Source: Desulfobacterales bacterium (GTDB lineage: Bacteria > Desulfobacterota > Desulfobacteria > Desulfobacterales > SpSt-501). Taken from it: 64,000 nt of DNA. The stretch is from assembly GCA_030834695.1 (NCBI GenBank), contig JAUQXK010000031.1:24079-88078 (forward strand), read 5' to 3'. Shown in pieces: positions 5,458 to 21,617 of this stretch. The notes under the pieces are model-generated. The model made no database searches, was not told the origin of the DNA, and saw nothing but the letters and a program-made list of their open reading frames with translations. The position numbers and the translations under genes are program-made. The stretch's first letter is position 1. Each line of letters begins with the position of its first letter.

Positions 5458-6453
<996 letters not shown>

Positions 6454-6461
<8 letters not shown>

Positions 6462-7566: not shown

Positions 7567-10542
7567 TTAGATCTTGTACAGCTCCAGCGCCTCCGGAAGC
7601 TTCGCGTTGGCCTCGCGCAGCTTCTCTTCGGAGCCGATCACCGCCACGGAACACTGACTCAGGCCGACGCCGAAATACCGCTCAGCGACAGCCGTCACCT
7701 CGCGCCGACGCAGGCCGATCAGCCGCTGCTTGAAGCGCTCGCGGATTTCGTCGGACAGCCCGATGACCCTGCGAAAGAAGGCCTTGCGAGCGGCCGGGCC
7801 GGGTGGATCCGGCTTGTCGATTTCCGAGCAAACCTGGAGGATGGCCTCTTTGATATCGGTCTCGCTGAACCCTCCGGCGCGTAGAAAACCGAACGCTCCG
7901 TCGAACACGTTCAAGGTGGCGGCGATGTGGGGGTCGCGGTAGGACGCCAGGCTGAAGACGCCGTCCTCGGAGTTGTAGAGCGCGAACCCCCCATATGCGC
8001 CGCCTTTTTCGCGGATCTCGCGGTGAAGGTAGAGGGAACGCAGCAATTTGGCCATGACCGCCAGGGCGGCGGAGTCCGTATGCTCCAGGCGCACCGTTGG
8101 AAAGGCGGCCGCCACGAAGTTCACCGCCGATTCGGTGCTCCAGCCTTCCCGCAGCCGGTCTCCGGGAAACCCGTTCTCCGGGCCGGCTAGCGATTCGGCC
8201 GTCCCCGGTCCAATCGCGTTCAGGGTGCTCGCCACCAGGTCGCCGGCGCGAGCGACCGCGTCGCGCTCGCCGATGACCGCCATCTGAAAACGGGAACGGT
8301 CCCACACGGTTGCACCGACCCGCGCGAGATCCGATGCCAGCCCGGCCAGGCGCTCATCCGAAAGATCCTCAAGCAGCCGTTTGACGTCCTTCAGCTGATG
8401 AATGCCGCTCCAGTCCTCGCTCAAGGCGCGCGCCCGGGAAAACCGGCGCGCAGCCAGCGACATGGCCAGCCGATGACCGTTGTGGACGATCATCGCCTCC
8501 AGCCCGGCCCGATACTCCAGCAGCAGGGTCTTCAATCGGCCGGCATCCGAAAAGACGGATTCGCCCAGCAGCTCCGCCAGGATGTCGAACATCGGATCGA
8601 GGTTGCGAACGAGGCTCTTGGACGTCAGCGCCACCAGCGGCAGGCAGCGGCCGCTGTCGCCGAAGCCGGTTCGGGGATTCGCAGACAGCCCCACGCCGCC
8701 GGTGAAGGCATCGATGCGCCGCGCCATCTCACTGTAATTCCGGCGGGCGGTGCCCATGCGCGAGAAGGCATGGCAGAAAAACGGCACCCAACCGATCAAC
8801 GGCTCAGGAAGCCCGCTGCAATCGGCGGCCGCGGCGACGTAGGCGATCCCGGAGGTGGCCTGCTCGAAATAGCTGACCGGCCGGCGCGGATCCGCTTCGG
8901 CTTCCGTAATCTTCTCGACATCCGGCGGGATGTCCTCGCGCTCGAGGGTCGGCAGACAATCGAGGGGTTCGTCGGCCTCCTGCAGGCGCCGCAGGGCGTC
9001 GGCATCCCGCCGCAGTTGCTCGACCGCATCGGCGCCCAGCTCCCGACGGAGGTGCTCCAGTTTTTCCCGTTCGCGCCGGGCCTCGCGTTCGGCCATATCC
9101 GGGTCGGGTGAAAGGGTCAGGCGCAGACGATGGGGGTTATCCAGAAAGGCGTGGGTCAACTGCTGCTCGAAGAAACGGCCCTGCGCCATGCGGCGGCGAA
9201 TTTCCGCCAGGTCCGCGTCGAATTTCAAAACGCGCAGCGGATCCCCCCCGTGGATCCAGGTGCTGCTGACGGCCAGCAGCAGCCGGATGCCGTAAGGGTA
9301 AGGGGTGTTGGTGATCTCGCGGCGGTGAAATTCCAGTTGATGGATGGCGGATTCGATCAGCTCCGGGTCGATCCCGTTTGCAACCAACCCCCGGATCACA
9401 TCGAAAATGATGCGTTCGACATCGTCGGCAGCCGCCCGCGCCACATCCTTCAGGCCGACGGTGAAATGCGTATCTCGGTTTTCAGCGTCATAGCCGCTGC
9501 CGTCGCACAACGCCGAGCCCAGGCCGGAGTCGATCAAGGCCTTGCGCAGCGGGGAGCCGGCATTTCCGATCAGAATCTGCTCGAGCAGAGACAGGCAGAG
9601 CACGTGCTGCGTATCGCGGACATCGCTGGTCAGCCAGGCCACACACGCCTGATGCTTTTTCGCCGGGTCTTCCCCACGACCGAACGGATAAGCGAAGGCG
9701 GCGGTGCGCGGGCCATCCCACCGCGGCTGAGGCAGGACATCGGTGTCGGGGTCGATGGCCTCAAACCGCCGCAACACGGTCTTTTCGATAAATGCCAGGC
9801 TCTCGGCGAGCGGCAGGTCGCCATAAGTAAAAAAATAGGCATTGCTGGGATGATAATGCCGCCGGTGGAATGCTTTGAGCTGCGCGTAGGTCAAGGACGG
9901 GATGTCGGCGGGCTCGCCGCCGGAGTTGTGGGCGTAGGTGGTGTCCGGATAAAGCGCCTTGAGAAGAGAACGCGCCAGGATCTGATCAGGGGAAGACATC
10001 GCCCCTTTCATCTCATTGTAGACAACGCCCTTGCACTCCAGGCGCTCGTTCCCCGCATCGTCCGGTCCGATTTCCAGCCGGTGGCCTTCCTGCTTGAAGC
10101 TGAGTTCCTCTATCTTCGGGAAGAACGCGGCGTCCAGGTACACGTCCATCAGGTTGAAGAAATCTTTTCGATTCTGAGTGGCAAACGGGTACATGGTCCA
10201 GTCCGAAGCGGTAAAGGCATTCATAAACGTGCTCAGACTGCGTTTCAGCATCGAAAAAAAAGGATCCCGCACCGGAAACCGTTCCGATCCGCAGAGCACG
10301 ACGTGCTCGAGGATGTGGGCCACACCGGTAGAGTCCCGCGGAACGGTTTTAAAAACCACGCCGAAGGCGTTCTCCCGGTCGGGGCGGCCGATGTGGATAT
10401 GCCGCGTGCCGGTCAGCGGATGCACCAACTCGTAGAAAACGGCGTGGATCTCCGGCAGGGGTTCCACCCGGAGCGTCTTGTAACCGTGAATAGCTTCGCC
10501 AACCGTCGCGGCGGGCGCAGGGGCATGCGGATGCGGGTTCAT
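7567..10542 (-). CDS. M16C family metallopeptidase (presequence-protease/PreP-like), no signal peptide
   Basis: 991-aa ORF with the inverted zincin motif HILEHVVLCGS (HxxEH). The size and layout are typical of PreP-type M16C enzymes. Confidence 0.82.
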   Translation of the reverse strand: MNPHPHAPAPAATVGEAIHGYKTLRVEPLPEIHAVFYELVHPLTGTRHIHIGRPDRENAFGVVFKTVPRDSTGVAHILEHVVLCGSERFPVRDPFFSMLKRSLSTFMNAFTASDWTMYPFATQNRKDFFNLMDVYLDAAFFPKIEELSFKQEGHRLEIGPDDAGNERLECKGVVYNEMKGAMSSPDQILARSLLKALYPDTTYAHNSGGEPADIPSLTYAQLKAFHRRHYHPSNAYFFTYGDLPLAESLAFIEKTVLRRFEAIDPDTDVLPQPRWDGPRTAAFAYPFGRGEDPAKKHQACVAWLTSDVRDTQHVLCLSLLEQILIGNAGSPLRKALIDSGLGSALCDGSGYDAENRDTHFTVGLKDVARAAADDVERIIFDVIRGLVANGIDPELIESAIHQLEFHRREITNTPYPYGIRLLLAVSSTWIHGGDPLRVLKFDADLAEIRRRMAQGRFFEQQLTHAFLDNPHRLRLTLSPDPDMAEREARREREKLEHLRRELGADAVEQLRRDADALRRLQEADEPLDCLPTLEREDIPPDVEKITEAEADPRRPVSYFEQATSGIAYVAAAADCSGLPEPLIGWVPFFCHAFSRMGTARRNYSEMARRIDAFTGGVGLSANPRTGFGDSGRCLPLVALTSKSLVRNLDPMFDILAELLGESVFSDAGRLKTLLLEYRAGLEAMIVHNGHRLAMSLAARRFSRARALSEDWSGIHQLKDVKRLLEDLSDERLAGLASDLARVGATVWDRSRFQMAVIGERDAVARAGDLVASTLNAIGPGTAESLAGPENGFPGDRLREGWSTESAVNFVAAAFPTVRLEHTDSAALAVMAKLLRSLYLHREIREKGGAYGGFALYNSEDGVFSLASYRDPHIAATLNVFDGAFGFLRAGGFSETDIKEAILQVCSEIDKPDPPGPAARKAFFRRVIGLSDEIRERFKQRLIGLRRREVTAVAERYFGVGLSQCSVAVIGSEEKLREANAKLPEALELYKI

Positions 10543-11034: not shown

Positions 11035-11288
11035 GGACATCCTCCTGTTGCTTCGTGTGAAGTAATTGACGACGAAAGTAATTCCGGGAAAGCTAATGGA
11101 TAAATAAAAGAAAGTCAAGCTGTACGACGGGCCGATTAGGAATTCGTTCGGTGGAATCGATTGATCCGCAACCTTTTTCCTGCTACGGTATCGGAAAAAA
11201 TCAGGCCGCTCGTGCATCCCCGGGTGGCATCCGAGAATTCTCCGAGCGGCCGGCGCCCCCGCGCCGACGCCGGCGTTTAAGGCACGCA

Positions 11289-12536
11289 TTGAGATCGCCC
11301 CAACTTCTTTGCAAGATCCACGACCTGCGTCCCCAGAAGCAGTTGGGACAGAACTTCCTCTCCGACCCGACCACCGCTCAGACGATCGTCGATCGCGCGG
11401 GCGTCCAGCCGGACGACGTCATCGTTGAGATCGGCCCCGGACTGGGCGCTCTGACGATTCCGCTGGCGCGAACGGTGCGCACCACCGTCATCGCGATCGA
11501 AAAAGACCGCACCCTGGCATCCGTCCTGCGCGAGGAGCTTGCCGGCGCCGGAGTCGCCAACGTCGAGGTGGTGGAAGCCGACGTGTTGGACATCGACCTG
11601 GCCGGCTTGGCTCCCGAAACCGCTCACCCCCTCACGGTCTTCGGCAATCTGCCGTACAACATCTCTTCTCAAATCGTCATCCGACTCATCGCGGCGCGCC
11701 GGCGGATTCCGCGGGCGGTGCTCATGTTCCAGAAAGAACTGGCCGCCCGGCTGAGGGCCGCTCCCGGAGGCAGAGACTACGGGCGCATCACCGCCATGCT
11801 GCGCTACTGCGCCGTGATCCGCCGCGTCGCGGTGGTGACGTCCTCACGTTTTTTCCCGACGCCCAAGATCGATTCTGAGGTGCTGGAGATTTGCTTCCGC
11901 CCGCCGCCCCTCGCTCCGGCGCATGACGAAGACCGATTGTTTCGGCTGATCGCCGCCGCTTTCGCCCAGCGGCGCAAAACCCTGAAGAACACGCTCTCGG
12001 CGGCCGGGCTTCCGCTCCGGCCCCAGGCGATCGTCCAGGCGCTGACGCAAGCGGGAATCGACCCGGCTCGACGGGCCGAGACCCTCTCCCCCGAGGAATT
12101 CATCGCCCTGGAGATCAGCCTGCATCGGATGACATCCGATTCGGATGCGCGGCGGCCCCCGGACGCAGCCGGAATTGCCCTTGACCCCTGCAATCGTTTG
12201 GGCTACCCTGACACCAAACGAGCGCAGAAGGAGGGCGACATGGCAATCAAAGTTCTGATTAAACGGCGAGTCCCGCTGGAGAAAGCCCGCGAAACGATCA
12301 CGCTCTTCCGCCAACTGCGGATCCTGGCGACGGCACAGGAAGGCTACATTTCCGGCGAAACCCTGCGCAGCCTCGAAAAACCGGAGGAGTTCATCGTGAT
12401 CAGCGCCTGGCAATCTTCGCAGGACTGGAAGAACTGGCTGGCCAGCCGGCAGAGAAAAGAAATTCAGTCCAAGATCGACCAACTGCTGGGTGGCGAAACC
12501 ACCTATGATATTTACCACTATGGTTTCAGCGCCTAA
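11289..12536 (+). CDS. rsmA: 16S rRNA (adenine1518/1519-N6)-dimethyltransferase RsmA/KsgA; the ORF continues in frame through an ABM domain
   Basis: The motifs QKQLGQNFL and VIVEIGPGLGALT (SAM-binding) and FGNLPYNISS identify RsmA. The start is uncertain (TTG 11289; there is no ATG upstream of the motifs). No stop codon occurs before 12534-12536. Confidence 0.8.
   Translation: MRSPQLLCKIHDLRPQKQLGQNFLSDPTTAQTIVDRAGVQPDDVIVEIGPGLGALTIPLARTVRTTVIAIEKDRTLASVLREELAGAGVANVEVVEADVLDIDLAGLAPETAHPLTVFGNLPYNISSQIVIRLIAARRRIPRAVLMFQKELAARLRAAPGGRDYGRITAMLRYCAVIRRVAVVTSSRFFPTPKIDSEVLEICFRPPPLAPAHDEDRLFRLIAAAFAQRRKTLKNTLSAAGLPLRPQAIVQALTQAGIDPARRAETLSPEEFIALEISLHRMTSDSDARRPPDAAGIALDPCNRLGYPDTKRAQKEGDMAIKVLIKRRVPLEKARETITLFRQLRILATAQEGYISGETLRSLEKPEEFIVISAWQSSQDWKNWLASRQRKEIQSKIDQLLGGETTYDIYHYGFSA
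12240..12536 (+). CDS. antibiotic-biosynthesis-monooxygenase (ABM) domain protein, nested in frame in the rsmA ORF
   Basis: ATG 12240 lies 5 nt after AAGGAGG. The 98-aa product MAIKVLIKRRV...FIVISAWQSSQDWKNWLASRQRKE has the ferredoxin-like ABM size and pattern. Confidence 0.6.
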   Translation: MAIKVLIKRRVPLEKARETITLFRQLRILATAQEGYISGETLRSLEKPEEFIVISAWQSSQDWKNWLASRQRKEIQSKIDQLLGGETTYDIYHYGFSA

Positions 12537-12542
12537 CACCGG

Positions 12543-12567
12543 CGCAGGGCCGCCGGGCGGCCCTGCG
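12543..12567. terminator. perfect 10-bp GC hairpin between convergent genes (possible bidirectional terminator, no U-tract)
   Basis: CGCAGGGCCG (12543-12552) pairs with CGGCCCTGCG (12558-12567) around a 5-nt loop. It lies 6 nt after the rsmA/ABM stop and 68 nt past the minus-strand GAPDH-like stop. Confidence 0.35.
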
Positions 12568-12634: not shown

Positions 12635-13891
12635 TCATAACGCTTCTGCGATCGATACGGTCCGGTCCCCCAGCATCCGAACGTAGCTGCCCTTCTCGTT
12701 GTCATACCAGCCATAAATAACCGCCTGGGTTACCGGAATGCGCACCACCACGCTTTTCAGCGACGCGAGCAGGGCGGGATCCATCCCCGGCACCTTGGCG
12801 AGATCGATGCAGGCCTCGGCCGTCCGGGTGTGGGTTTCCGCGCTTTCGATGATGGCCGCCGCACGCGGCATTCCGATGATATCCGTTGAAACATTCTGCT
12901 GCTCGGAATACATCAGATAACCGTTAAGGCTGTCGGCCGCCGCTTGACGGTAGATCGCGTTGATCGTCGCCCGGTCGATTCGACCCGCCGCGGTTTCTTC
13001 CTGCAGGTTGATCACCAAAATGATGAGCGACCCCGTACTGGTGGGAATGCGCACCGATTCGGCGATGAAAGGGATGTCCTTCATCTCCGGGATCACCAGC
13101 CGCAGCGCGTTGGCAGCGCCCGTGGACGTCAGGATGATGTTGTTCATGATGCTGCGGCTCTTGCGCAGGTCGCCCTTGCCGGCCTCCGGCAGGCGATCCA
13201 GCACCTCCTGGGAACTCGTCGCCGCATGCACGGTGGCCATCGTTGCCGACAGAATCCGTTTGGCCCCGAACGTGTCGATGAGCGGGCGCATCATATGGGC
13301 CAGACAGGTGGTGGTGCAGGAGGCGCAGGAGACGATGCGATGCTGCCGCGGGTCATAGTCGTTGCCGTTGATCCCCATGACGGTGGTGACGGCATCGGCG
13401 GGGACGGCGGCGGTCTTGTCCTTGATCTTGAAGGGCGCCGAGACCACCACTTTCTCGGCACCCGCCAGCAAATGCCCGCGCGCCGATCCCTTGGGGTCTT
13501 CCGGTCCGATGGTGGGGTCCAGGAATTGGCCGGTGGTGTCCACCACCAACCGGACACCGTATGCCCCCCAGCCGATATCCGCCGGATTGCGTTTTTCTCG
13601 CAGGAAGCGCACCGGCAGGCCGTCGATCCGGAGCGTTCCCTTTTTCTCATCGACTTCCGTGATCACCGGACGGGCTTGGTGGCCGTACAAGTATCCATGC
13701 AGCCACCCGTACGTCGAATCCCGCTCGACATAGTGCGCAACGTCCGCCAGCGATTTCCCGGCCGCCCTCCCGAGATTGACCACGACCTCCCCGAACGCCT
13801 TGCGCGCCACGTGGTGCCAGAGCGTCAGCTTCCCGATACGGCCGAGCCCGTTGATGCCCAGTTTGAGTCCTGAATCGGATAATCCGGCCAT
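12635..13891 (-). CDS. glyceraldehyde-3-phosphate dehydrogenase family protein, long divergent form (418 aa)
   Basis: It has the N-terminal Rossmann motif GINGLGRIGK, a catalytic-Cys motif SCASCTTTCLAH (canonical SNASCTTNCLAP) and TVHAATSSQ. The start follows GGGGAGG. It is about 80 aa longer than canonical GapA. Confidence 0.78.
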   Translation of the reverse strand: MAGLSDSGLKLGINGLGRIGKLTLWHHVARKAFGEVVVNLGRAAGKSLADVAHYVERDSTYGWLHGYLYGHQARPVITEVDEKKGTLRIDGLPVRFLREKRNPADIGWGAYGVRLVVDTTGQFLDPTIGPEDPKGSARGHLLAGAEKVVVSAPFKIKDKTAAVPADAVTTVMGINGNDYDPRQHRIVSCASCTTTCLAHMMRPLIDTFGAKRILSATMATVHAATSSQEVLDRLPEAGKGDLRKSRSIMNNIILTSTGAANALRLVIPEMKDIPFIAESVRIPTSTGSLIILVINLQEETAAGRIDRATINAIYRQAAADSLNGYLMYSEQQNVSTDIIGMPRAAAIIESAETHTRTAEACIDLAKVPGMDPALLASLKSVVVRIPVTQAVIYGWYDNEKGSYVRMLGDRTVSIAEAL

Positions 13892-13964
13892 GAAGGTCCT
13901 CCCCTTTCTGCTTCGCTCCCGGTAAGCTCGCGGATCGGCTGCAACCGTTCCAGGAGGCGTTGGG

Positions 13965-16900
13965 TCATGCTTCCCTCAGCTTGATGACTCCCCGATACAC
14001 CGATCCCTCATGACCGTCAATGCTGAGGTGATCACCGGTCTTCAGCACCGCCGACGGGAACCGGCATTGCTTTTCGCGTTCGCTGCACTCCAGGCTGCCG
14101 CACCCGACCACGCAGGTTTTTCCGAGCCGATGCGCCACGACGGCCGCATGGGAGGTCAGGCCGCCGCGGGCGGTCAGCAGACCGTCGGCCGCGTTGATCT
14201 CGCAGATGTCGTCCGGAACCGTGTCCGTGCGGGCCAGGATGAGATGCGTGGCCGGCTCCCGCTGCCGCCAGGCCTCGATTTCATCGAGACTGAAAACCAG
14301 CCGGCCGGTCATCGCGCCCCCGCTGACGCCGATGCCGTGTCCCAGCAGCCGGTCGTGGGGCGGCACCTCCAGGTCGAAGGCGAGCACCTTCGGGCTTTCG
14401 CGGATGGCCATGTCCCGGGTCTGCAGCATGTAAAGATCGATGGTGGACGGCCCCTCAAAGGTGAACTCGATCTCCTGCGGGCTCCAGCCGTGGTCGTCGA
14501 TGAGCACATGGGCCCAGCGCTGCAATTCGCGATAGATGTCTGGAAAGTGCGTTTCCAGGGTGACATCGGTCTCGCGCATTTCAATTTCCTGCTGGAAGAG
14601 CGAGATCGGCATCGTGCGCACCAGTCCGGATACCACGTCCTCTCCCTGATTGGCGGTAGTGAAGTCTCCCCACAGCTTCAGCACGTCTCCGGCCCACCGC
14701 GGGTTGTGCGTGAAGATCACTCCGGTCCCGGATTCGGAGGACAAGTTCCCGTACACCATGGCCTGTACGGCGATGGCCGTGCCCCAGTCGTCCGAGATTC
14801 CCATGATGCGCCGGTAAGCCAACGCTTTCGGAGATTCCCATGATGCCAGCACCCGACGGATCGCCAGCAGCAGCTGTTCGAAGGGCAAGTCGATAACCTC
14901 CACTCCCGCCTCTTCGATCAGACGCCGGTAGGCAAGCGCCACCTCCCGCATTTGTTCGCCGGAAAAATGCCGTTTCAACGGGATCCCGAGCCGCTGCTTA
15001 AAGCGGTCGATCACGGCATCGAAGTCGTCACGCGTCAGGTCGTGGGCCATGCCGTAGTTCTGGAGAAAGCGCCGGTAGTTGTCCCAGGCGAACCAGGCGT
15101 TGCCGGACCGAGCCGCCACGCCGGATGTGATCTCCTGGTTGTTGCCCACATCCAGCAAGGTGTCCATCATTCCGGGTTGGGAGATGGCCGATCCGCTGCG
15201 CACGGACAGGAGCAGCGGATTGGCGGGATCGCCGAAAGCCTTGCCCGTGGCCTGCTCCAGCCCGCGCAGGTGGTGGATGATCTGCTCGTGAAAGTTGCGC
15301 TGGGCCGGTGCATAGCTTTCGATCACCTCGCGGCAGCGGAAGACTTCGGTGGTCACGATGAAGCCGGGAGGCACTCGAAAACCCAGACTGTTCAGCTTGA
15401 CCAAATTGAAGCCTTTGGTGCCGAGATGAATGACGCCGATTTCGCGCTCGGCCGGCGAATCGATCGTCACCAGGCTGGCCTGCGGGTCGTAGAGCAGAAG
15501 CTTCTGGAGCTTGTCCTTGGGCAGCTTGTAGGATTGCTGGAAGAGGGTATTCAAAATCCGGCCCAAGAACAGATCCAACTGCTGGAGGCCGAGCGAACCG
15601 GCGATCTGATCGCGAAAAAATATCTCCGCGACGCGGTGGTCGAGCCGCTCGCGGTCCTCCAGAGGCTCTCGCGGGAGGTATTTCGGCAGGATGCGGTCGA
15701 TCGAGAGCGAGGGCAGGATGCGGTTCAGATTCGCTCCGTGCAGGTTGTTGAAGTGGTCCTTGATGATGTTCTGAACGGCCTGGGCGAATCCTTTGAAAAT
15801 GTCCAGATACTGGGTCAGCGTGAACCCCTTGACCGCCAGCGAATCCCTTAGGAACTCCAGCTGGCGCTCGAATTCCGCCGACCGGATGCCGTCCAGCCGC
15901 AGGGCTTGGTCGAACCGCTGCAGGGCCTGGTAAATCTGGGCGAAGGTGGCCTTGGTGATCAGGGTGAGATCGATATCGCGGATCAGGCCCTCGAAGAGCA
16001 CGTTCACCATCGCCTCCAGGCGCAGCGTCAGCCCGAGGCAGTCGAACTTCATTTCATGGTAGCTGCCGTACATGGAAGGGATGTCGATCGTGATGTGTCG
16101 CTTCTGGTAGATGTCCTCTCGGATTTCATAAAACGCATCCGAGGTGATGACGGCTTTCAGCGTCTCGAGGTAGTCCAGTATCCGCGTCAGCCGCCGCTCC
16201 GACTCGACTTCGTTCAACGCCTGCTCCAGGCGGCTCAGCTCCGGCAGCGCCTCGGGGCGCAGTTGGGCCAGGTAGTTCTCCATCTCCACGATGTCGAGCC
16301 GGTACTTCTGATGCAGCAGCTTGTAGAATTCCACCGCCAGATTAAACCGCTCCATGTCGGCGCCGGAAACGCCCGGAATGAACCCCAGCCGGGATGAGAG
16401 CTCCTCCGGCCTCAACGCCAGCAGGTCATCGGGGATGCGGACGCCCTTCTTCACCAGACGCTGCATCACCCGGTGAAGTCCCTTGACATAAGGACCCCGC
16501 GAATCGATCTGCTCGAAAATCACCGGCGGGACAAACAGCGCCAATCCGTCCTTTTCTTGGGTCTTCCAAAACTCGAACGTTGCCGCCATGAAGGGAATGA
16601 TCTGGTTGCTGCTTTCGACGTGGCTTTGCTTGCGCAGGAAATGAACCAGTACATCCCGGCGTTGGGAGAGCTCATCGATGCGGGTGGAGACATCCCGCAG
16701 CCGGCCCTCGGCGCCGATGTCGTTGAAGAACACCGGGCACAACCGGGAGAACTGTTTCACCAAATGATAAACGGGATCGACCGGGCTGTTGAGCAGCCCG
16801 GTGATGTCCCGCGGAAAGAGGTCGATGTCGCGGATCAGCACGCCGCATAGCGACAGATGGATGATCAGGGCCGAGAGCAGCCGGGTCGAACGCTTCGGGT

Positions 16901-18203
16901 TCAGCTTGATCAACTCGAGCCAGGTACGGATGTTCATCAGGTGGGCGCTGTTGGACTTGATGCGCCATTCGTCGTCGACTCCCTGCACCGAGGGCGCCTG
17001 GAAGCCGAGATCGATGAGGGCGTCGATGAAAAAATTCACCAGGTCGATGTCGTCTGTCTTATAAACCCCTCTTCCCATGTTGAGCACGCAGGTGAGGGCC
17101 GTCGCCGGATAGCTCTGGGAACGCTCCTTGAGAATCGTGAAGGTCTTGCGGATCAGCTGCTGGATGTTGCGGTAATTCTCGTTGACGATGATCCAGGTCA
17201 GGGTCTGGTTGATCTCCCTCAGGGTCTCTTCATGAATCAGGGCCAGCCCCGCGATGTTCATCATCTGGAAGAGGAAGATCAGCTTCAGGTGTTGGCCCCG
17301 GCCGCTCGCCGTCTTGCGGTCCAGCAGCTTTTGGGGGATGGTTTTGTATGCATCGACGAAATGGTTGAATCCGGGCAGGGCCAGCAGCCGGTCCGCGACC
17401 TCGGGCGAATCCGGATCGGTCGAGGATAAAACCGTGTTCAGGACGGTTTGCCATTCCTCGATCCGGCGGTGGGAAATGGCCTCAAAAAGATCGTCGCAGG
17501 CCTCGCCGCTCCCGAATTCAGAGGACTCCCGGCCGCATGCGCTTTCCGGATCGCTTTCGCTCAACCAGTAGGCATAGGTGCGCCCCAGGTACCGGGCCAG
17601 CAGGCGGTTGAGCGGAGCAAACCCCTCGCGGGCGGCCGCCGTTCGTTTCATGAAGGCAGCGGCCAGGCGGGCCGCCGGGTGATAGCTTCGAACCACCAAA
17701 TCGAAGGCCGCCTCCGGCAGTTGATGCAGCAGCTCGCACCCATCGTTGACGACCGGACGGAACCGCTCGAAGTCGGCGCCGGAATCTCGAACGATCGTCT
17801 GCAGGTACAACAGCAAATTATCGACCGCTGCGCCCTTTACATCCTCCGTTTTGGCGGAGTAAACGGCAGCGATGAGAATTTCCGTGATCCGTCGGGAAGC
17901 CTCCGGTCCCCGAGGGTGCTGCCGGAAGAGGTGGAAATAGTCCAGGGAGTATTTGCGCGCCTCCGCGACGATGAAGCGCCAATTGAGATAAGGGTGGGAC
18001 AGCTCTTCGAGAAAGGTGTTCAGCCCCTCCATCAAGCCGTAATATTTGTTCATGACCTCCTGAAGCACGGTGTACTTCGGATCTACGACGACATCGACAT
18101 GGTAATCCGCCAGATTGACTTCAAGTGCCCTGGATTTGGGCTTGGGGGCTGAATCCATGGAGCGCATTCCGTTCCGCCGAAGCGGGCTGTTTGCCTTCGG
18201 CAC
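13965..18203 (-). CDS. 1412-aa protein with a ~925-aa unassigned N-terminal region plus a PPDK-type ATP-grasp nucleotide-binding domain and a PEP-utilizer phosphohistidine swivel domain
   Basis: The C-terminal ~485 aa (nt 13968-15422) carry PPGFIVTTEVF, LLSVRSGSAISQPGMMDTLLDVG, WGTAIAVQAMVYGN..SGTGVIFTHNP, NQGEDVVSGLVRT, EIEFTFEG..LYMLQTRD and GGLTSHAAVVAHRLGKTCVVG. No PEP/pyruvate TIM-barrel segment follows. The start is uncertain (GTG 18203, or ATG 18167 or 18158). Confidence 0.8.
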   Translation of the reverse strand: MPKANSPLRRNGMRSMDSAPKPKSRALEVNLADYHVDVVVDPKYTVLQEVMNKYYGLMEGLNTFLEELSHPYLNWRFIVAEARKYSLDYFHLFRQHPRGPEASRRITEILIAAVYSAKTEDVKGAAVDNLLLYLQTIVRDSGADFERFRPVVNDGCELLHQLPEAAFDLVVRSYHPAARLAAAFMKRTAAAREGFAPLNRLLARYLGRTYAYWLSESDPESACGRESSEFGSGEACDDLFEAISHRRIEEWQTVLNTVLSSTDPDSPEVADRLLALPGFNHFVDAYKTIPQKLLDRKTASGRGQHLKLIFLFQMMNIAGLALIHEETLREINQTLTWIIVNENYRNIQQLIRKTFTILKERSQSYPATALTCVLNMGRGVYKTDDIDLVNFFIDALIDLGFQAPSVQGVDDEWRIKSNSAHLMNIRTWLELIKLNPKRSTRLLSALIIHLSLCGVLIRDIDLFPRDITGLLNSPVDPVYHLVKQFSRLCPVFFNDIGAEGRLRDVSTRIDELSQRRDVLVHFLRKQSHVESSNQIIPFMAATFEFWKTQEKDGLALFVPPVIFEQIDSRGPYVKGLHRVMQRLVKKGVRIPDDLLALRPEELSSRLGFIPGVSGADMERFNLAVEFYKLLHQKYRLDIVEMENYLAQLRPEALPELSRLEQALNEVESERRLTRILDYLETLKAVITSDAFYEIREDIYQKRHITIDIPSMYGSYHEMKFDCLGLTLRLEAMVNVLFEGLIRDIDLTLITKATFAQIYQALQRFDQALRLDGIRSAEFERQLEFLRDSLAVKGFTLTQYLDIFKGFAQAVQNIIKDHFNNLHGANLNRILPSLSIDRILPKYLPREPLEDRERLDHRVAEIFFRDQIAGSLGLQQLDLFLGRILNTLFQQSYKLPKDKLQKLLLYDPQASLVTIDSPAEREIGVIHLGTKGFNLVKLNSLGFRVPPGFIVTTEVFRCREVIESYAPAQRNFHEQIIHHLRGLEQATGKAFGDPANPLLLSVRSGSAISQPGMMDTLLDVGNNQEITSGVAARSGNAWFAWDNYRRFLQNYGMAHDLTRDDFDAVIDRFKQRLGIPLKRHFSGEQMREVALAYRRLIEEAGVEVIDLPFEQLLLAIRRVLASWESPKALAYRRIMGISDDWGTAIAVQAMVYGNLSSESGTGVIFTHNPRWAGDVLKLWGDFTTANQGEDVVSGLVRTMPISLFQQEIEMRETDVTLETHFPDIYRELQRWAHVLIDDHGWSPQEIEFTFEGPSTIDLYMLQTRDMAIRESPKVLAFDLEVPPHDRLLGHGIGVSGGAMTGRLVFSLDEIEAWRQREPATHLILARTDTVPDDICEINAADGLLTARGGLTSHAAVVAHRLGKTCVVGCGSLECSEREKQCRFPSAVLKTGDHLSIDGHEGSVYRGVIKLREA

Positions 18204-18432
18204 TCAGCGTAAAAGGAGGTACCGGATGGGATGCCGCCCACGGAGAGTCGTCGTGACGGACCGGCGCTCCAGAAAAGGCGAATCCTCGGCCTCTTTCTAC
18301 GGTAGTGTACCAGATGGGGTCTGGAGTGACAAGGTTTGGGGGGGCATGGCGGTATACAATTCGCGGCGCGCACGGTGCTCACGGGCGATGCAACGATCGG
18401 GTTGCATGAACCGTTCGGCGCCGGAATCGGGT

Positions 18433-19059
18433 TTAAGAAGCCAGTTCCCGGGAGAGGCCGATCAATCGGTACACCACCATGCCCGCCAGCCAAGCGATGT
18501 CCTCGGGAGAAAGCATCCGTTCGATGCTGCGATCGAACAGGATGGTGGCCTCGGCCGGAAACTCATCGTCGCCGGCGTGCAGGATCAGGCGCACCGGCAC
18601 TTTCGGAAATACCCGGAAATCGAATCCCGCATCGCCGAACTCCACGGCAACGCCGTCCAGCCGGGCGGCCGCATGCTTCAAGCCGGCGATATTCCGCCCG
18701 AACGCTTTTTTCAACGGTTCAACGGCTCGTTTGAGAAAGGCAGCGTAATAGAACGCCGCGCCCGGGATCTCGCGGTAGGCGACCCAATCCCCGGGCGAGT
18801 GCTCCGGCCGTCCGGCCAGCAGGTAATGCAGAATAAGAATCTGCTCCTGAATCGGCACCTCTTTGCCGGGTGTGGTGAGGTCTTGAAATTGAAAGTCGGG
18901 ATAGCCCAACCGAAAAACCCGATCGAGAAACGGAATTCGCAGCGCCTTCCCTTCTTCCGATTCGTATCCGGAGCGCAGTTGGAGGAATTCATACGGCTCC
19001 GCAGCCAGTCGCTCTCTGGCCAATGCACAGGCTGCGATGTAGTCATCGATACGGGGCAT
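18433..19059 (-). CDS. hypothetical protein (resembles DUF3786-type proteins that accompany corrinoid/CODH-ACS genes; assignment from memory only)
   Basis: 208-aa ORF with coding-like composition, sitting between acsE and the 1412-aa gene. There is no obvious SD before ATG 19059. Confidence 0.5.
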   Translation of the reverse strand: MPRIDDYIAACALARERLAAEPYEFLQLRSGYESEEGKALRIPFLDRVFRLGYPDFQFQDLTTPGKEVPIQEQILILHYLLAGRPEHSPGDWVAYREIPGAAFYYAAFLKRAVEPLKKAFGRNIAGLKHAAARLDGVAVEFGDAGFDFRVFPKVPVRLILHAGDDEFPAEATILFDRSIERMLSPEDIAWLAGMVVYRLIGLSRELAS

Positions 19060-19143
19060 GTTAGGAGATGCGCGATGCTGGATACTGGATAAGAGAAATG
19101 GTGGACTCCGCTCTATTCAGAATCCCGTCTCCGGTATCCAAAG

Positions 19144-19180
19144 TGAAAGAAAAGCCCTCCCCTCTTGCGAAGGAAGGGCT
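19144..19180 (-). terminator. rho-independent terminator candidate just after acsE
   Basis: The minus strand reads AGCCCTTCC-ttcgcaaga-GGGGAGGGCT followed by TTTTCTTTC. The stem spans 19153-19180 and the U-tract 19144-19152. It begins 29 nt after the acsE stop. Confidence 0.5.
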
Positions 19181-19208: not shown

Positions 19209-20099
19209 CTAGATATCCAGCCAGGAATCCGAGTACAGGGCATTGCCAAGGATGACGTTGACCGTTTTTACGTAATCCTTCATTTCCTTGGTAAGGGATC
19301 CCATGTCCGGGGTTTTGCCGTCCATGACGCCGTAAATCAAGTCTACGATGTCCTGGCGTTTTCCCTTGGCGATGGCGGTCAGCTGATCGTCGAGCGGGTC
19401 GGAGATGACCGAATACATGCCGTGCTTCTGCAGCATGACCATGTAAGTCTGGTTGAGGATCGGCCGCAGATGGCCCGGAGGCCCATTGGAGATGTTTGAC
19501 AGGCCGCAGGTGCTCTTGGCGCCGGGGGCCATGTCCGGAATCATGGCCTGGAAGTTCATCAGGCTGATGGCCTGGGGCTGCTGAATGTTGACCGGTGTCA
19601 CGATCCCGTCGATCCAGATTTTTTCGTTGGGAATCCCGGCCTCGTTGGCGAAGTAGATCAGTTCCACGCACAGGGCCGCACGCTCGTTCTCATCACGCGG
19701 CAGGCCTTCCGGGCCCCACATCAAGGCGATGAAATCGGCGTTGCTATCCTTGGCGATGGGCACCATGCGCTCGTAACGCTCCGGCCGCACCATGATGGAG
19801 TTGATCAGCGGCGGTTGGGTCGTCGGCTTGTACACTTTGAGCGCAGCGGCGATGGCGTCAATGTTGGAGGTGTCCAGGGCCAGGGGAACGTCGGGGACCA
19901 CTTCCTGGACCGTCTTCACCACCCACGGCATTAGCTCATGGCCTTCCTTCTTGGCCGGACCGAGGTTGATATCGATGTAGTCCATGCCCTTTTCTTTCTG
20001 AAAAAGGGCTTCCTCCTGGATCGGCTTCGGATCGCGTTCTTTAAAGGCCTTTCCGATCTTCTTGTTGATGACGTTCAAGCTTTCACCGATTAAGATCAT
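19209..20099 (-). CDS. acsE: methyltetrahydrofolate:corrinoid/iron-sulfur protein Co-methyltransferase (pterin-binding domain)
   Basis: 296-aa ORF beginning MILIGESLNVINKKIGKAF...MDYIDINLGPA...PLALDTSN, which is a pterin-binding (DHPS-like) barrel pattern. It lies directly downstream of acsC. Confidence 0.82.
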   Translation of the reverse strand: MILIGESLNVINKKIGKAFKERDPKPIQEEALFQKEKGMDYIDINLGPAKKEGHELMPWVVKTVQEVVPDVPLALDTSNIDAIAAALKVYKPTTQPPLINSIMVRPERYERMVPIAKDSNADFIALMWGPEGLPRDENERAALCVELIYFANEAGIPNEKIWIDGIVTPVNIQQPQAISLMNFQAMIPDMAPGAKSTCGLSNISNGPPGHLRPILNQTYMVMLQKHGMYSVISDPLDDQLTAIAKGKRQDIVDLIYGVMDGKTPDMGSLTKEMKDYVKTVNVILGNALYSDSWLDI

Positions 20100-20185: not shown

Positions 20186-21526
20186 TTATTTCGACTTGAG
20201 GAAGGCCGGGAGGTGCGCGGCTTCCCGCGGACCCACCGTGATCTTCCAGCCGGGCAACTCTTCTTCCATGTCGCCGGCGATCGCAGCGGCGTAACCGGGT
20301 ATGATGACTTCCTTGTTCTTGATCTTCTCCTCGATGCCGCTCTTCTTCACGAACATGCCGACGTCGTCGCCCGCGAACTTGCCGGCCGCCCAGGCGGTCA
20401 TGACCGACAGGCCCTCGGAGTCCTTGATCAGCAGGTAGGAGGGGATACGGCTCGCCTCGATTTCGCCGGAGACGATGAAGTAGGTCAGGGCGAAGTTGGT
20501 GGTCACCATCACCGGGGAGGTCTCGTTCGGATTGTTGATTTCGTAAATCCCCTGGGTCACGGTCATGGGCCGCTGCGGGTCGGTGAAGATGTTCAGCCGT
20601 TCAAGCAGCAGCGGAAAGAGGTTCTCGCCCGCGAAGTCCGACATCACGACGATTCCGCCGTATTTGGCGACGAAGGTCCCGGCAATGAGGGTTTCCACAT
20701 CGAGGTTCCCGGCCATTTCACAGGGGAATACGATGGTCGGGAAGCCCAGGGCCCGGTTGCCGTCCTTAAGCGCAGAGCGCCGGATGGCGATCAAGTCTTG
20801 GTGGGCCTGCTTGATTTCCCGGCAGCCCGGGTCGAGCACCAGGTCCTTCAGCCCCATTTCGGTGAGTTTCTGTGTGAGCGGAACCAGGTCGGCCACCGAG
20901 CCGGCCGTGACGGCCAGGGGCAACTCGGTCTCTTTGGCCAGCGCACCCATCTCTGCCAGATTGGCGGCGTTGGCGGCATACATCAACGGGCGCTTGAACT
21001 TCGTGGCCGCGACGGCCGCTTTCATCACGGCCGGCTTATCGGTCATCAGCACGAGGTTGAACTCGGAGGTTTCGGCGATGGTTTTGGCAGTCTTGGCGAA
21101 GGCCTCGGCATTCCCGTTGACGTCCTTTACGGCCACCAGTTCCGGCCGCAGGTTGAGACCGACGCGCTCGTATTGAAAGGCGTTCCATTTCTTCAGCTTC
21201 GTCTGAAGGTCCGCTGCCGAAATGTCCGAGCCAACCTTAGCGGCCAACAGCGTCGGGTTGAAGAAGGTCTTTTCGTGGCGATACTGTACGGTCTCGCCGC
21301 CGGTGGTCGCCGCCCGCACCCCTTTTCCCAGAGCCACGGGCCGGATCGGGGGCGCTGAGGCCTCGGAGAGCGCCGCACGTGCTTCAGCCGACACGTAGGG
21401 GCAGCTGTCGAGTTCGGCCTTGCCGGAGGCGAGGTTCATCGCGAAGGCCAGGCAGGTCGGAACACCGCATTCCTTGCAGTTGGTTTTCGGAAGGAGCTTG
21501 AATATCTGAATTCCGGTTAATGCCAT
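20186..21526 (-). CDS. acsC: corrinoid/iron-sulfur protein large subunit (CdhE/gamma)
   Basis: ATG 21526 follows AAGGAGA. The N-terminal 4Fe-4S motif is MALTGIQIFKLLPKTNCKECGVPTCLAFAMNLASGKAELDSCPY. The product is 446 aa. Confidence 0.88.
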   Translation of the reverse strand: MALTGIQIFKLLPKTNCKECGVPTCLAFAMNLASGKAELDSCPYVSAEARAALSEASAPPIRPVALGKGVRAATTGGETVQYRHEKTFFNPTLLAAKVGSDISAADLQTKLKKWNAFQYERVGLNLRPELVAVKDVNGNAEAFAKTAKTIAETSEFNLVLMTDKPAVMKAAVAATKFKRPLMYAANAANLAEMGALAKETELPLAVTAGSVADLVPLTQKLTEMGLKDLVLDPGCREIKQAHQDLIAIRRSALKDGNRALGFPTIVFPCEMAGNLDVETLIAGTFVAKYGGIVVMSDFAGENLFPLLLERLNIFTDPQRPMTVTQGIYEINNPNETSPVMVTTNFALTYFIVSGEIEASRIPSYLLIKDSEGLSVMTAWAAGKFAGDDVGMFVKKSGIEEKIKNKEVIIPGYAAAIAGDMEEELPGWKITVGPREAAHLPAFLKSK

Positions 21527-21617
21527 CTCGGTCTCCTTTGTGCGTGTTTCAGGTACGGTGCCGACGGCGCGCGCCGTCATGCCGGTCGCGCGCCGCCCGA
21601 TAATCCCCCAATATCCG

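Follow-up and report, generated by a model that had tools for sequence, protein, structure and literature searches.

In the window, a stretch of 64,000 nucleotides from a Desulfobacterales genome, we detected a gene for a giant protein derived from pyruvate, phosphate dikinase (PPDK), here designated giant, followed by a gene for a long glyceraldehyde 3-phosphate dehydrogenase (GAPDH), designated gapL. Comparison of related loci supports a functional coupling of gapL to this His-relay, dikinase-like protein, and the two genes appear to form a module with its own, conserved promoter. The pairing of giant with GAPDH suggests that sugar-phosphate metabolism includes a step not described so far. 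We found no literature on this module, and databases name the giant protein PPDK.

Three ORFs follow acsE (19209-20099) in the same direction on the minus strand: a DUF3786 gene (18433-19059; PF12654, 178 bits, E = 1e-52), giant (13965-18158) and gapL (12635-13891). Unless noted otherwise, features given below are also on the minus strand. The giant ORF extends to a GTG (13965-18203, 1412 aa); in relatives, it is the ATG at 18158 (MDSAPK..., 1397 aa) that is conserved as the start. The preliminary description of this DNA reported three co-oriented genes with spacers of 229 bp (DUF3786-giant) and 73 bp (giant-gapL), and both spacers were present, the first being counted from the GTG and amounting to 274 bp from the conserved ATG. 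The terminator that it had noted after acsE also proved credible. This intrinsic terminator (19153-19180), recognized by its stem and U-run, fold energy and positional conservation, has a stem of 12 bp, a loop of 4 nt and a U-run, with an MFE of -22.9 kcal/mol (z = -4.2) and equally good folding in 0/200 shuffles. A hairpin with a T-run occurs at the same position in ~30 related loci with differing stem sequences; thus, the terminator is conserved by function and not by chance. It is most likely the end of the acs operon. A promoter scan, together with conservation in relatives, located a sigma-70-like promoter of the giant-gapL unit at 18304-18332 (TTGTCA, a 17 nt spacer and a TG-extended TACACT). 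Both hexamers were invariant in 6 relatives, whereas the spacer sequence around them was variable and contained indels. DUF3786 lies upstream of this promoter. On the other side, a GC-rich hairpin (12543-12567, no strand assigned) is located between the convergent gapL and rsmA/ABM genes. As described previously, its stem is perfect (11 bp, with a 3 nt loop), and it folds with -29.3 kcal/mol including flanking pairs (z = -3.6). It has no U-run and its sequence is not conserved among relatives; it is the probable end of the giant-gapL unit.

The association of giant with GAPDH was examined in three independent scans, in which linkage was defined as a GAPDH gene within 2.5 kb of giant. GAPDH was found beside giant in 195 of the 208 informative loci (71/71 in Desulfobacterales, and 63/70 and 61/67 in the other two scans). 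These loci come from anaerobes in over a dozen major bacterial lineages, including Desulfobacterales, Bacteroidales, Clostridia, Geobacter, Cloacimonadota, Thermoleophilia and Nitrospirota. No other conserved neighbor of giant was detected across the examined loci. In the reverse scan, which started from gapL, giant was present in 61 of 75 loci; it was missing from about seven of them although at least 2.6 kb of upstream sequence was available. The two genes occur in five arrangements: the long GAPDH downstream of giant, the long form convergent with it, a canonical short form divergent from it, a short form upstream in the same operon, and both forms together. The partner GAPDHs are likewise of several kinds, and some are fully canonical (433-444 bits on TIGR01534); those paired with giant in Bacteroidales and Desulfobulbales score above the cut-off of the type I GAPDH model. 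Gene order is gapSHORT-giant-gapLONG-pgk-tpiA-secG in three loci (L254, L257 and L303), giant-gapLONG-pgk-tpiA-secG in L278, and glgA-like-gapSHORT-giant in Desulfobulbales. Because the pair sits inside gap-pgk-tpiA-secG operons in several genomes, it is tied to lower glycolysis or gluconeogenesis. The preliminary description had suggested a dehydrogenase coupled to a His-relay enzyme, and the coupling turned out to be far stronger than could be known from a single locus. Its proposal that the conversion is separate from glycolysis is contradicted by these operons and by the location of the pair beside canonical gap and a glgA-like gene elsewhere.

The C-terminal half of the giant protein corresponds to the nucleotide-binding and phospho-His part of PPDK, so that the earlier designation as a pyrophosphokinase was imprecise. 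Residues 927-1412 match residues 18-514 of C. symbiosum PPDK (E = 3e-89), and this half superposes on 1kbl with an rmsd of 3.1 A. It contains a PPDK-type ATP-grasp nucleotide/Pi-binding domain (14364-15458; PF01326; approximately residues 916-1280, the boundaries being approximate) and a phospho-histidine swivel domain (13968-14363; PF00391 and PPDK alignment), in which codon 14148-14150 specifies the catalytic His1352 of the TSH motif. In 47 diverse representatives, this His and the ATP/Pi residues of PPDK were invariant, with K930, R1002, G1011, R1045, E1244, E1246, Q1261 and R1263 conserved family-wide. In addition, M1013, the residue aligned with PPDK M103, does not vary among close relatives. 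Both the ATP/Pi site and the catalytic His of the giant protein are intact. The alignment also places the C-terminus of the protein at the point where the PEP/pyruvate barrel of PPDK would start. Some members of the family carry an N-terminal hemerythrin domain, which is a typical O2/NO/redox sensor; in one of these members, Tyr replaces the catalytic His.

The remaining ~900 aa (15459-18158) form a novel N-terminal domain, which is presumed to be an acceptor or docking domain. It was found in 585 clusters at 50% identity and had no match in Pfam or NCBIfam. AF2 models predicted it with good confidence to be all-alpha (pLDDT 80 and 89). A Foldseek comparison with the PDB yielded no fold relative; the only matches were generic solenoids (TM < 0.17), all of them protein-binding HEAT/ARM scaffolds. 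About 40 positions, rich in Arg, Lys, His, Asp and Glu, were kept in at least 95% of the 47 representatives. The invariant motif E-x-I-Y-x-KRHIAxGIPSMYGxYxExKF(D/E)ALGL (16029-16118; residues 696-725 in the 1412-aa numbering), predicted to be a beta-hairpin in the AF2 model, is conserved in 47 full-length representatives, whose overall identity is 28-56%.

GapL (418 aa; PF00044 and PF02800) retains the catalytic Cys192 (SCASCTT, codon 13316-13318) and His222 (TVHAAT, codon 13226-13228), as had been recognized, and is ~85 aa longer than type I enzymes of ~331-335 aa, close to the earlier estimate of ~80. Equivalents of S148, C149, T150, H176, T179, T208-G209, R231, N313 and E314 are kept, as are the binding residues for the C3 phosphate and for inorganic phosphate, and GapL retains the complete active site of a phosphorylating GAPDH. 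Two changes were observed: R195 is replaced by K, and D32 by N-x-G-R-E-x-G with an invariant Arg. The possibility that GapL is an ordinary Gap was ruled out, in agreement with the preliminary description: it scores 321.7 bits on TIGR01534 (cut-off 367.2), it belongs to a separate, monophyletic clade (100/100 bootstraps), and its inserts are specific to this clade and conserved across the whole of it.

We tentatively suggest that the giant protein may be a 3-phosphoglycerate/1,3-bisphosphoglycerate dikinase coupled to GAPDH, with the acceptor proposed from gene context only. The module would act at the glyceraldehyde-3-P/1,3-bisphosphoglycerate/3-phosphoglycerate step. Like PPDK, the protein would autophosphorylate His1352 from ATP and Pi, yielding AMP and PPi, and the phosphate would then be transferred to the carboxylate of 3-phosphoglycerate at a site in the N-terminal domain. 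The net reaction would be 3-PG + ATP + Pi <-> 1,3-BPG + AMP + PPi. By textbook free energies the forward reaction would lie near +5 kJ/mol and hence be reversible. The labile 1,3-BPG would be passed to or from the partner GAPDH, for which the clade-specific inserts of GapL may serve as docking elements. Such a route would be parallel to PGK and linked to PPi/AMP, and it could be direction-specific, e.g., gluconeogenic with a GapL that is not restricted to NAD. Several considerations count against this proposal. To our knowledge, the phosphate acceptor in known members of the PPDK superfamily is an enolate, a hydroxyl or water, and never a carboxylate. Binding of a C3 acid would hardly call for a solenoid-like domain as large as 900 aa, which bears more resemblance to a scaffold for protein binding. 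In some genomes the operon also includes pgk; the module is thus dispensable as a substitute for PGK, and PGK and the module together would risk a futile cycle. GAPDH is absent from the vicinity of giant in 13 of 208 informative loci, Acetobacterium among them. Finally, the members with hemerythrin domains, including the one lacking the catalytic His, fit a regulatory role equally well.

Another view takes the database names (pyruvate, orthophosphate dikinase and glyceraldehyde 3-phosphate dehydrogenase) at face value, i.e., an ordinary PPDK beside an ordinary glycolytic GAPDH. The strong similarity to PPDK residues 18-514 agrees with it; however, the PEP/pyruvate-binding domain is missing (no PEP-utilizers_C match in the Pfam/NCBIfam profile search), the PPDK models TIGR01828 (394 bits, cut-off 843) and NF004531 (316 bits, cut-off 456) are not reached, no separately encoded barrel is conserved near giant in the examined loci, and GapL, as noted above, falls below the GAPDH-I cut-off in a clade of its own. 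We regard this view as extremely unlikely. Nearly as improbable is a unit of DUF3786, giant and gapL tied to acs (Wood-Ljungdahl) and non-glycolytic, or forming the tail of the acs operon. The three genes are adjacent and co-oriented in the window, and the order acsE-(DUF3786)-giant-gapL is kept in most Desulfobacterales loci. However, acsE is followed by a conserved terminator, and DUF3786 is separated from giant by a conserved promoter; no more than about half of the Desulfobacterales loci have DUF3786, and no cross-phylum locus does; and the syntenic block also holds rsmA and a pitrilysin-like peptidase gene, which are unrelated housekeeping genes. Moreover, L055-L060 and L070 contain giant and gapL but no acs, the neighbors there being efflux-pump, LOG-family and DNA-methylase genes, neither acs nor DUF3786 was found near the pair in the cross-phylum loci scanned, and the pair is elsewhere located inside gap-pgk-tpiA operons. 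The last scan showed genuine acs and DUF3786 neighbors in Desulfobacterales loci only, apart from partial, weak matches to acs-like genes in L241, L264 and L295. The comparative data largely refute this reading, and the adjacency of giant-gapL to acs is a lineage-specific synteny of Desulfobacterales. The single three-gene unit of the preliminary description could not be upheld: neighborhood conservation held for the giant-GAPDH pair and failed for the trio, with DUF3786 being a neighbor outside the conserved module.

Two other explanations are, in our estimation, rather unlikely. The giant protein might serve a different small acceptor and feed, or be fed by, a GAPDH-type dehydrogenase, either by phosphorylating a hydroxyl (glyceraldehyde to G3P, glycerate to 3-PG or dihydroxyacetone to DHAP) or by activating another phospho-acid, e.g., 4-phosphoerythronate, with GapL acting on the product. 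Hydroxyl and enolate acceptors have precedent in the superfamily (rifampin phosphotransferase, glucan water dikinase, PEPS and PPDK), and rifampin phosphotransferase gave weak matches to the giant protein in profile, sequence and structure comparisons. The divergence of GapL (its TIGR01534 score, the R195 to K change and an altered cofactor pocket) means that its substrate need not be G3P, and tpiA and glgA-like neighbors would also suit a triose or glycogen-related substrate. On the other hand, the type I GAPDHs paired with giant in Bacteroidales and Desulfobulbales tie the module to G3P and 1,3-BPG, and GapL keeps its phosphate-binding residues. G3P, 3-PG and DHAP are stable and diffusible, which leaves a dedicated and co-evolving clade of GAPDHs without a rationale, and we know of no obvious source of free trioses in many of the hosts, which oxidize acetate, alkanes or fatty acids. 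Alternatively, the protein might act on GAPDH itself, with the helical domain clamping the tetramer and the phospho-His domain phosphorylating, regulating or reactivating it, for example by ATP-dependent rescue of an oxidized or blocked catalytic Cys, or as a redox- or energy-dependent switch of flux direction. The solenoid-like fold with its HEAT/ARM matches, the variety of partner GAPDHs, the hemerythrin fusions and the presence of pgk in the same operon are in line with this idea. Yet the ATP/Pi site and catalytic His are invariant almost universally, the dense constellation of invariant charged residues in the N-terminal domain is typical of a small-molecule active site, and GapL, as a dedicated, co-inherited paralog with an intact active site, resembles a partner in metabolism more than a target of regulation. 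We found no precedent in the PPDK/PEPS superfamily; Enzyme I of PTS, a relative, phosphorylates a protein but uses PEP and a different architecture.

The proposed 3-PG dikinase would follow a general logic of the GAPDH dehydrogenase fold, in which a kinase is paired with an acyl-phosphate reductase, as in PGK/GAPDH, AK/ASD, NAGK/ArgC and ProB/ProA. With PPDK, the giant protein shares the ATP/Pi site and the catalytic His, whereas the PEP/pyruvate barrel is swapped for a helical domain of ~900 aa.

On the minus strand of the window, the CODH/ACS genes (a CdhD-like gene, 23886-25484; acsB, 21618-23834; acsC, 20186-21580; and acsE, 19209-20099) are followed, 3' of acsE, by three co-oriented ORFs. 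These are a DUF3786 gene (18433-19059), the PPDK-derived dikinase-like gene that we call the giant (13965-18203, 1412 aa from a GTG start) and gapL, the long GAPDH gene (12635-13891, 418 aa). The first product matches PF12654 (E = 1e-52, 178.4 bits with a gathering score of 27), and the other two were identified by ORF calling and Pfam. A literature search, with subscription journals outside its scope, found nothing on DUF3786 in a relevant context. The genes, hairpins and GAPDH motifs of the preliminary description were confirmed as written, with one correction: the start of the giant that is kept in relatives is the ATG at 18158 (MDSAPK...), which gives 1397 aa, the modal homologue length. 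Residue numbers below refer to the 1412-aa form.

A hairpin with a 12-bp stem and a U-run (19180-19153, minus strand; MFE -22.9 kcal/mol, z = -4.2) follows acsE, and a terminator-like hairpin with a differing stem sequence was found 3' of acsE in about 30 relative loci. Upstream of the giant, a putative promoter (18332-18304, minus strand) consists of TTGTCA, a 17-nt spacer and a TG-extended TACACT. Both hexamers are invariant in six relatives, while the remainder of the DUF3786-giant spacer is rich in substitutions and indels. The 5' leader of the giant is not conserved among relatives, and Rfam searches of the leader and spacers for known RNAs or riboswitches gave sub-threshold chance matches only. 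The spacer between the giant and gapL varies from 2 to 385 bp across Desulfobacterales loci and has no predicted terminator in the window. From the terminator and promoter, transcription of giant-gapL is predicted to be independent of acs, and the predicted transcription units are acs...acsE, DUF3786 and giant-gapL. A perfect GC hairpin (12543-12567; 11-bp stem, 3-nt loop; -29.3 kcal/mol with flanking pairs, z = -3.6) lies between convergent genes downstream of gapL and has no U-run. It was considered as a conserved terminator and rejected: the hairpins of relatives at this place are assorted, some of them canonical terminators, and none is conserved in sequence.

Several flanking genes deserve mention. 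Upstream of the acs genes are a RACo-type reductive activator of corrinoid protein with Fer2 and RACo domains (25848-27809, minus strand) and an acetyl-CoA hydrolase/transferase fused to a GNAT acetyltransferase domain (28003-29883, minus strand). The CdhD-like ORF (532 aa) matches Pfam CdhD at residues 16-297 only (model positions 1-241 of 387), and its C-terminal ~235 residues have no match. On the plus strand, a 461-aa ORF (11151-12536) contains an RsmA/KsgA rRNA adenine dimethylase domain (62-322) and an ABM monooxygenase-like domain (366-439) in one frame; its tblastn match spans both parts in several relatives and the RsmA part alone in most, so it is either a fusion or two genes without a stop between them. 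A 991-aa ORF at 7567-10542 (minus strand) is, by our reading of its sequence, a pitrilysin-like peptidase.

We compared 80 Desulfobacterales loci (55-93% identity), among which the closest named relatives were Desulfatibacillum MAGs (93% identity). In all 71 informative loci gapL lies 3' of the giant, and only about half of the loci have a DUF3786 gene. Thus, of the three-gene synteny originally suggested, the giant-gapL part holds and the DUF3786 part does not. acsE is upstream in most loci, not in all: RND-pump, LOG-family or DNA-methylase genes take its place in seven relative loci (L055-L060 and L070), and two others (L044 and L050) are rearranged. In most loci the same syntenic block continues through acs, the giant and gapL into rsmA and the pitrilysin-like peptidase, and because it does so, the acs adjacency looks like inherited gene order and not functional linkage. 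The whole region, rsmA and the peptidase gene included, is thus a stretch of preserved gene order whose members are not all related in function. The conserved terminator after acsE, the giant's own conserved promoter and the loci of this order in which the pair has no acs neighbor also speak against a place in the acs operon. In other lineages the only acs-like genes seen near the pair were weak partial matches of 23-24% identity in L241, L264 and L295.

The distribution of the pair was followed in three further scans, two of them using profiles built on distant clades of the giant and the third starting from gapL. Each cross-phylum scan for the giant returned at least 600 matches. Together, the scans reached Bacteroidales, Lentimicrobium, Clostridia (Anaerovoracaceae, Syntrophomonadaceae, Oscillospiraceae), Geobacter, Syntrophaceae/Smithella, Syntrophorhabdus, Desulfobulbales including cable bacteria, Thermodesulfobacteriales, Nitrospirota, Cloacimonadota, Atribacterota, Calditrichales, Acidobacteria/Aminicenantes, Sumerlaeota, Chloroflexia, Spirochaetales, Thermoleophilia, Gaiellales, Acidimicrobiia and Coriobacteriaceae. 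Among the matches listed in the two cross-phylum scans, 63 of 70 and 61 of 67 informative loci had a GAPDH gene no more than 2.5 kb from the giant; if a genome has one or two gap genes, we estimate chance adjacency at less than about 1%. Started from gapL, the scan found the giant at 61 of 75 newly fetched loci; about seven lacked it despite at least 2.6 kb of upstream sequence, and the remainder were too short to tell. When neighboring ORFs were clustered all against all, GAPDH was the only conserved neighbor (58 of 80 loci in the first set, with 8 for the next cluster; 121 of 148 in the second, followed by acsE at 10 loci, nine of which had Desulfobacterales-type acs neighborhoods). The giant-GAPDH pairing is ancient and specific.

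The arrangement of the two genes differs between lineages. The long GAPDH may be downstream of the giant in an operon or, in Smithellaceae, convergent with it. In Bacteroidales a fully canonical short GAPDH (TIGR01534, 433-444 bits) is upstream and divergent; elsewhere a short GAPDH precedes the giant with overlapping stop and start, or long and short GAPDHs occur together with it. Thirteen informative loci, including that of Acetobacterium carbinolicum, had no GAPDH near the giant. Neighbors at the Acetobacterium locus and at two yak-rumen loci of this kind (L081, L082) were ABC-transporter, anti-sigma-type, HTH, CAT and Lcl-domain genes, which were uninformative as to function. Long-type GAPDHs without a giant in the upstream sequence were seen in L180, L206, L209, L215 and L226 (6 kb in most), L184 (about 2.6 kb) and L214 (5 kb), from Lentimicrobium, Bacteroidales, Spirochaetales, Actinomycetes and Peptostreptococcaceae.

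A functional context was provided by loci in which the pair is part of a lower glycolysis/gluconeogenesis operon. In L254 (Thermodesulfobacteriales), L257 and L303 (a Desulfobulbus propionicus MAG), the gene order is gapSHORT-giant-gapLONG-pgk-tpiA-secG, all co-oriented, where gapSHORT is a canonical-type GAPDH; L278 has giant-gapLONG-pgk-tpiA-secG. In addition, tpiA adjoins the giant in L239 and L246, with secG also present in L239. This context contradicts the earlier suggestion that the pair serves a phospho-metabolite conversion rather than glycolysis, and these operons show that PGK co-exists with the module. We consider it very likely that the giant and gapL act as a GAPDH-coupled module in triose-phosphate metabolism, without dependence on acs. 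In locus coordinates, the giant and long GAPDH are set between gap and pgk of a classical gap-pgk-tpiA-secG operon at L254:2431-11618, L257:369-9748 and L303:4927-14050, so that the two GAPDH paralogues, PGK and the giant are all products of a single operon; the giant-gapLONG-pgk operon of L278 is at 1733-10074. A glgA-like glycosyltransferase gene (starch-synthase catalytic domain) precedes gapSHORT-giant in five Desulfobulbales loci (L281, L284, L294, L297 and L301; about 2.4-10.3 kb in locus coordinates), and an ArsR-type regulator is convergent downstream in L281, L284 and L297.

Residues 927-1412 of the giant, comprising an ATP-grasp nucleotide/Pi domain and a phospho-histidine swivel domain, can be aligned over their whole length with C. 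symbiosum PPDK residues 18-514 (E = 3e-89, about 34% identity), and the C-terminal half superposes on PPDK 1kbl with an rmsd of 3.1 A over about 540 columns. The giant terminates at the equivalent of PPDK residue 514, where the PEP/pyruvate barrel would start. Pfam detected PPDK_N (PF01326, E = 5e-29) and PEP-utilizers (PF00391, E = 1e-17) only, with no Pfam match to the PEP/pyruvate TIM barrel (PF02896) in the giant, and scores against PPDK equivalogs were below cut-off (TIGR01828, 394.4 bits vs 843.45; NF004531, 315.7 vs 456). Key residues of the ATP-grasp region (927-1267) are kept: K930, R1002, G1011, M1013, R1045, E1244, E1246, Q1261 and R1263 align with PPDK active-site residues that we take to be K22, R92, G101, M103, R135, D321 (Glu in the giant), E323, Q335 and R337, respectively. 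The mobile domain carries His1352 in the motif GGLTSHAAV. Among 47 full-length sequences of 28-56% identity, eight of the nine positions and His1352 (T-S-H) are each kept by at least 95%; M1013, which aligns to PPDK, is invariant among close relatives. Because these ATP/Pi-site residues and His1352 are conserved, the first PPDK partial reaction (enzyme-His + ATP + Pi -> enzyme-His-P + AMP + PPi) is very probably retained. As in the rest of the superfamily, His1352 would be expected to be autophosphorylated from the ATP beta-phosphate and then to transfer the phosphate to an acceptor.

The N-terminal ~900 residues (the N-domain) matched no Pfam or NCBIfam model. AlphaFold2 predicted this region confidently as all-alpha and solenoid-like (pLDDT 80, 19 sequences); a deeper model of residues 213-1412 (51 sequences) had pLDDT 89 and pTM 0.76. 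Foldseek against the PDB returned generic HEAT/ARM scaffolds only for the N-domain, with TM-scores below 0.17. Two ways of retaining a complete PPDK were considered and rejected: a permuted enzyme with the barrel hidden in the N-terminal 900 aa (the AlphaFold2 model is all-alpha and Foldseek found no barrel), and a split enzyme with the barrel encoded nearby (none was conserved among neighbors clustered over 228 loci, which rejects it for cis-encoded partners). The N-domain has many invariant polar residues (H421, D459, D461, E499, R503, D510, R515, D517, H521, R524, K525, H528, K633, Y634, E860, R864 and D877) and a signature, E-x-I-Y-x-KRHIAxGIPSMYGxYxExKF(D/E)ALGL (residues 696-725), which forms a beta-hairpin in the deeper model. 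The invariant polar pattern resembles that of a third active site, and on account of these residues we take the N-domain to be the putative acceptor-binding domain. The giant thus has an ATP-grasp domain, a phospho-His carrier and a separate third domain in one polypeptide, the composition of a histidine-swivel dikinase. The catalytic His is kept in 45 of 47 aligned sequences, the exceptions being two family proteins, P0270, in which T-S-Y replaces T-S-H, and P0278, whose C-terminus looks frameshifted. Some family members (P0270 and P0278, both from representative-library matches) have an N-terminal hemerythrin HHE domain, and P0270 may be a non-catalytic or regulatory variant.

The giant family comprises 585 clusters at 50% identity. 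Public sources name its members 'pyruvate, orthophosphate dikinase' or 'PEP/pyruvate-binding domain-containing protein', and the long GAPDHs are named plain GAPDH. The PPDK-type name is a misannotation, because the PEP/pyruvate domain is absent. Hundreds of protein clusters are therefore labelled 'pyruvate, phosphate dikinase' without a pyruvate/PEP domain, a conclusion that holds even without a mechanism. For the same reason, genome-based metabolic reconstructions that count the giant as PPDK are wrong, and those of anaerobe MAGs may over-count PPDK. The literature search, again outside subscription journals, found no report of the giant or its GAPDH pairing. The fold modules are already known; new are the putative acceptor domain of this histidine-swivel dikinase and its conserved pairing with a GAPDH.

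The partner in the window, gapL, has both GAPDH domains (PF00044 and PF02800), with Cys192 in SCASCTT and His222 in TVHAAT, each invariant in the long clade. Its best solved relatives are bacterial GAPDHs (E = 2e-41). Against TIGR01534 it scored 321.7 bits (cut-off 367.2), with other long-clade members at 297-309 and canonical GAPDHs adjoining the giant at 433-444, and its 418 aa compare with about 330-340 aa for ordinary GAPDHs. We aligned 44 long with 23 short GAPDHs, all taken from the retrieved loci. The long enzymes keep S148, C149, T150, H176, T179, T208-G209, R231 and WYDNE, including the phosphate-site residues S148, T150, T179, T208-G209 and R231; the exception is R195, whose place is taken by Lys in the whole clade. 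Where ordinary enzymes have the NAD-determining N-D (Asp32), the long ones have N-x-G-R-E-x-G with an invariant Arg, a change that points to an altered cofactor preference. The clade also shares four or five insertions, one of about 30 aa ahead of WYDNE; in gapL the inserts lie at about residues 57-77, 125-135, 154-166 and 345-390. In a neighbor-joining tree, with a hand-entered E. coli GapA reference sequence, the long clade was monophyletic (100/100 bootstraps; 55% identity within the clade and 34% to short GAPDHs) and gapL did not cluster with ordinary GapA-type enzymes, in agreement with the original proposal that it is not an ordinary Gap. The phosphorylating active site of gapL is intact in sequence.

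How might a dikinase and a GAPDH cooperate? The metabolite most plausibly common to a phosphotransferase and GAPDH is 1,3-bisphosphoglycerate (1,3-BPG), and for this reason we tentatively propose that the giant would catalyze 3-PG + ATP + Pi <-> 1,3-BPG + AMP + PPi at the N-domain and that 1,3-BPG would be passed directly to or from the partner GAPDH; this mechanism may well be wrong. The scheme is in keeping with the universal pairing of kinases with acyl-phosphate reductases (PGK/GAPDH, AK/ASD, NAGK/ArgC, ProB/ProA). From textbook free energies, 3-PG + ATP + Pi -> 1,3-BPG + AMP + PPi is near +5 kJ/mol, so it could run either way, as the levels of AMP and PPi dictate. The co-evolution of the giant with a dedicated GAPDH clade that has extra surface inserts would be accounted for by the lability of 1,3-BPG. 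Direction-specific enzyme pairs are known, such as GapA/GapB of B. subtilis and archaeal GAPN/GAPOR vs PGK/GAPDH, and gapL, which lacks the NAD-determinant Asp and stands in operons beside an NAD-type short Gap and PGK, recalls them. The broader reading is more doubtful: that many anaerobes possess an unrecognised second 3-phosphoglycerate/1,3-bisphosphoglycerate enzyme, a three-site '3-phosphoglycerate, phosphate dikinase', assembled from PPDK modules with a new acceptor domain, that would work in a channelling complex with its dedicated GAPDH and use AMP/PPi instead of ADP.

Several observations count against the 3-PG mechanism, and some of them bear on its rivals. A solenoid as large as 900 aa would be more usual in a protein-binding role, and the giant might act on the GAPDH protein itself, in regulation or reactivation; the invariant polar residues predicted to form a third active site speak for a small acceptor. 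We regard a protein-directed role as unlikely. It is equally unlikely, in our view, that the acceptor is a different small molecule, for example a triose or glycerate hydroxyl or another phospho-acid. To our knowledge no family member phosphorylates a carboxylate, which weighs against 3-PG; 1,3-BPG is the compound that a GAPDH partner would most plausibly share. Where pgk shares the operon, a futile cycle would be a concern, and the hemerythrin-domain members, one with Tyr for the catalytic His, and the thirteen loci without a nearby GAPDH are further weaknesses of the 3-PG mechanism. An acs-linked function of all three genes would fit the gene order of most Desulfobacterales loci and is very improbable given the patchy DUF3786, the loci without acsE and the acs-free pairs of other phyla. 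Least credible is the database annotation taken at face value, which has the PPDK-like C-terminal half in its favor and the missing pyruvate/PEP domain and the below-cut-off scores of both proteins against it.

If the triose-phosphate context is correct, a core central-carbon reaction has an undescribed alternative enzyme in sulfate reducers, syntrophs, rumen and sediment Bacteroidales, Cloacimonadota, Clostridia, Thermoleophilia and Nitrospirota, with a bearing on ATP/AMP/PPi balance in energy-limited organisms. Sulfate reducers produce PPi for each sulfate activated. A 3-PG dikinase would make its step direction-specific or PPi-energy-conserving, as PPDK does at pyruvate/PEP. The pair makes a sharply defined experimental target: two soluble proteins with predicted chemistry in tractable hosts.

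Among known systems, PPDK (EC 2.7.9.1; C. symbiosum 1KBL/1DIK) shares with the giant homologous ATP-grasp and phospho-His domains in the order nucleotide then His domain, and the TSH His. However, PPDK has a PEP/pyruvate TIM barrel and the giant has none; instead, an all-alpha domain of ~900 aa stands ahead of the ATP-grasp, scores are far below the PPDK cut-offs, and the conserved gene partner is GAPDH and nothing in pyruvate metabolism. Rifampin phosphotransferase (RPH; 5HV1/5FBS), to which sequence and structure matches were weak, and alpha-glucan, water dikinase (GWD), a protein of about 1,400 aa, likewise combine an ATP-grasp, a mobile phospho-His and a family-specific acceptor domain (predicted in the case of the giant), but their domain order differs and their acceptor domains are unrelated to that of the giant. 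One article also gives about 1,400 aa for GWD, similar to the giant (PMC13553574). The giant's nucleotide domain is nearer to PPDK (394 bits) than to the PEPS/RPH type (38-88 bits), which suggests Pi/PPi chemistry rather than water.

Type I GAPDHs (GapA/GapB; TIGR01534) have both Pfam domains, the catalytic Cys/His, the phosphate-site residues and WYDNE in common with gapL, whereas gapL is about 85 aa longer, has a changed Asp32 motif, shows about 34% identity, falls in a separate clade and almost always adjoins a giant gene. The ArsJ-associated GAPDH (NF033735) is similarly a specialised paralogue genetically coupled to a partner that handles an unstable acyl-anhydride product; however, gapL reaches 177 bits (cut-off 450), and its partner is a soluble dikinase-like protein instead of a transporter, in a gene context that lacks ars. 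With PGK/GAPDH, aspartokinase/ASD, NAGK/ArgC and ProB/ProA the module would share a principle, an ATP-dependent acyl-phosphate maker coupled to a dehydrogenase of the GAPDH fold or a related one, or the reverse, and with PGK/GAPDH it also shares genomic context, the pair lying between gap and pgk in L254, L257 and L303. The analogy is functional only and drawn from gene context: unlike the kinases of these pairs, the giant is a three-site dikinase that would take ATP to AMP.
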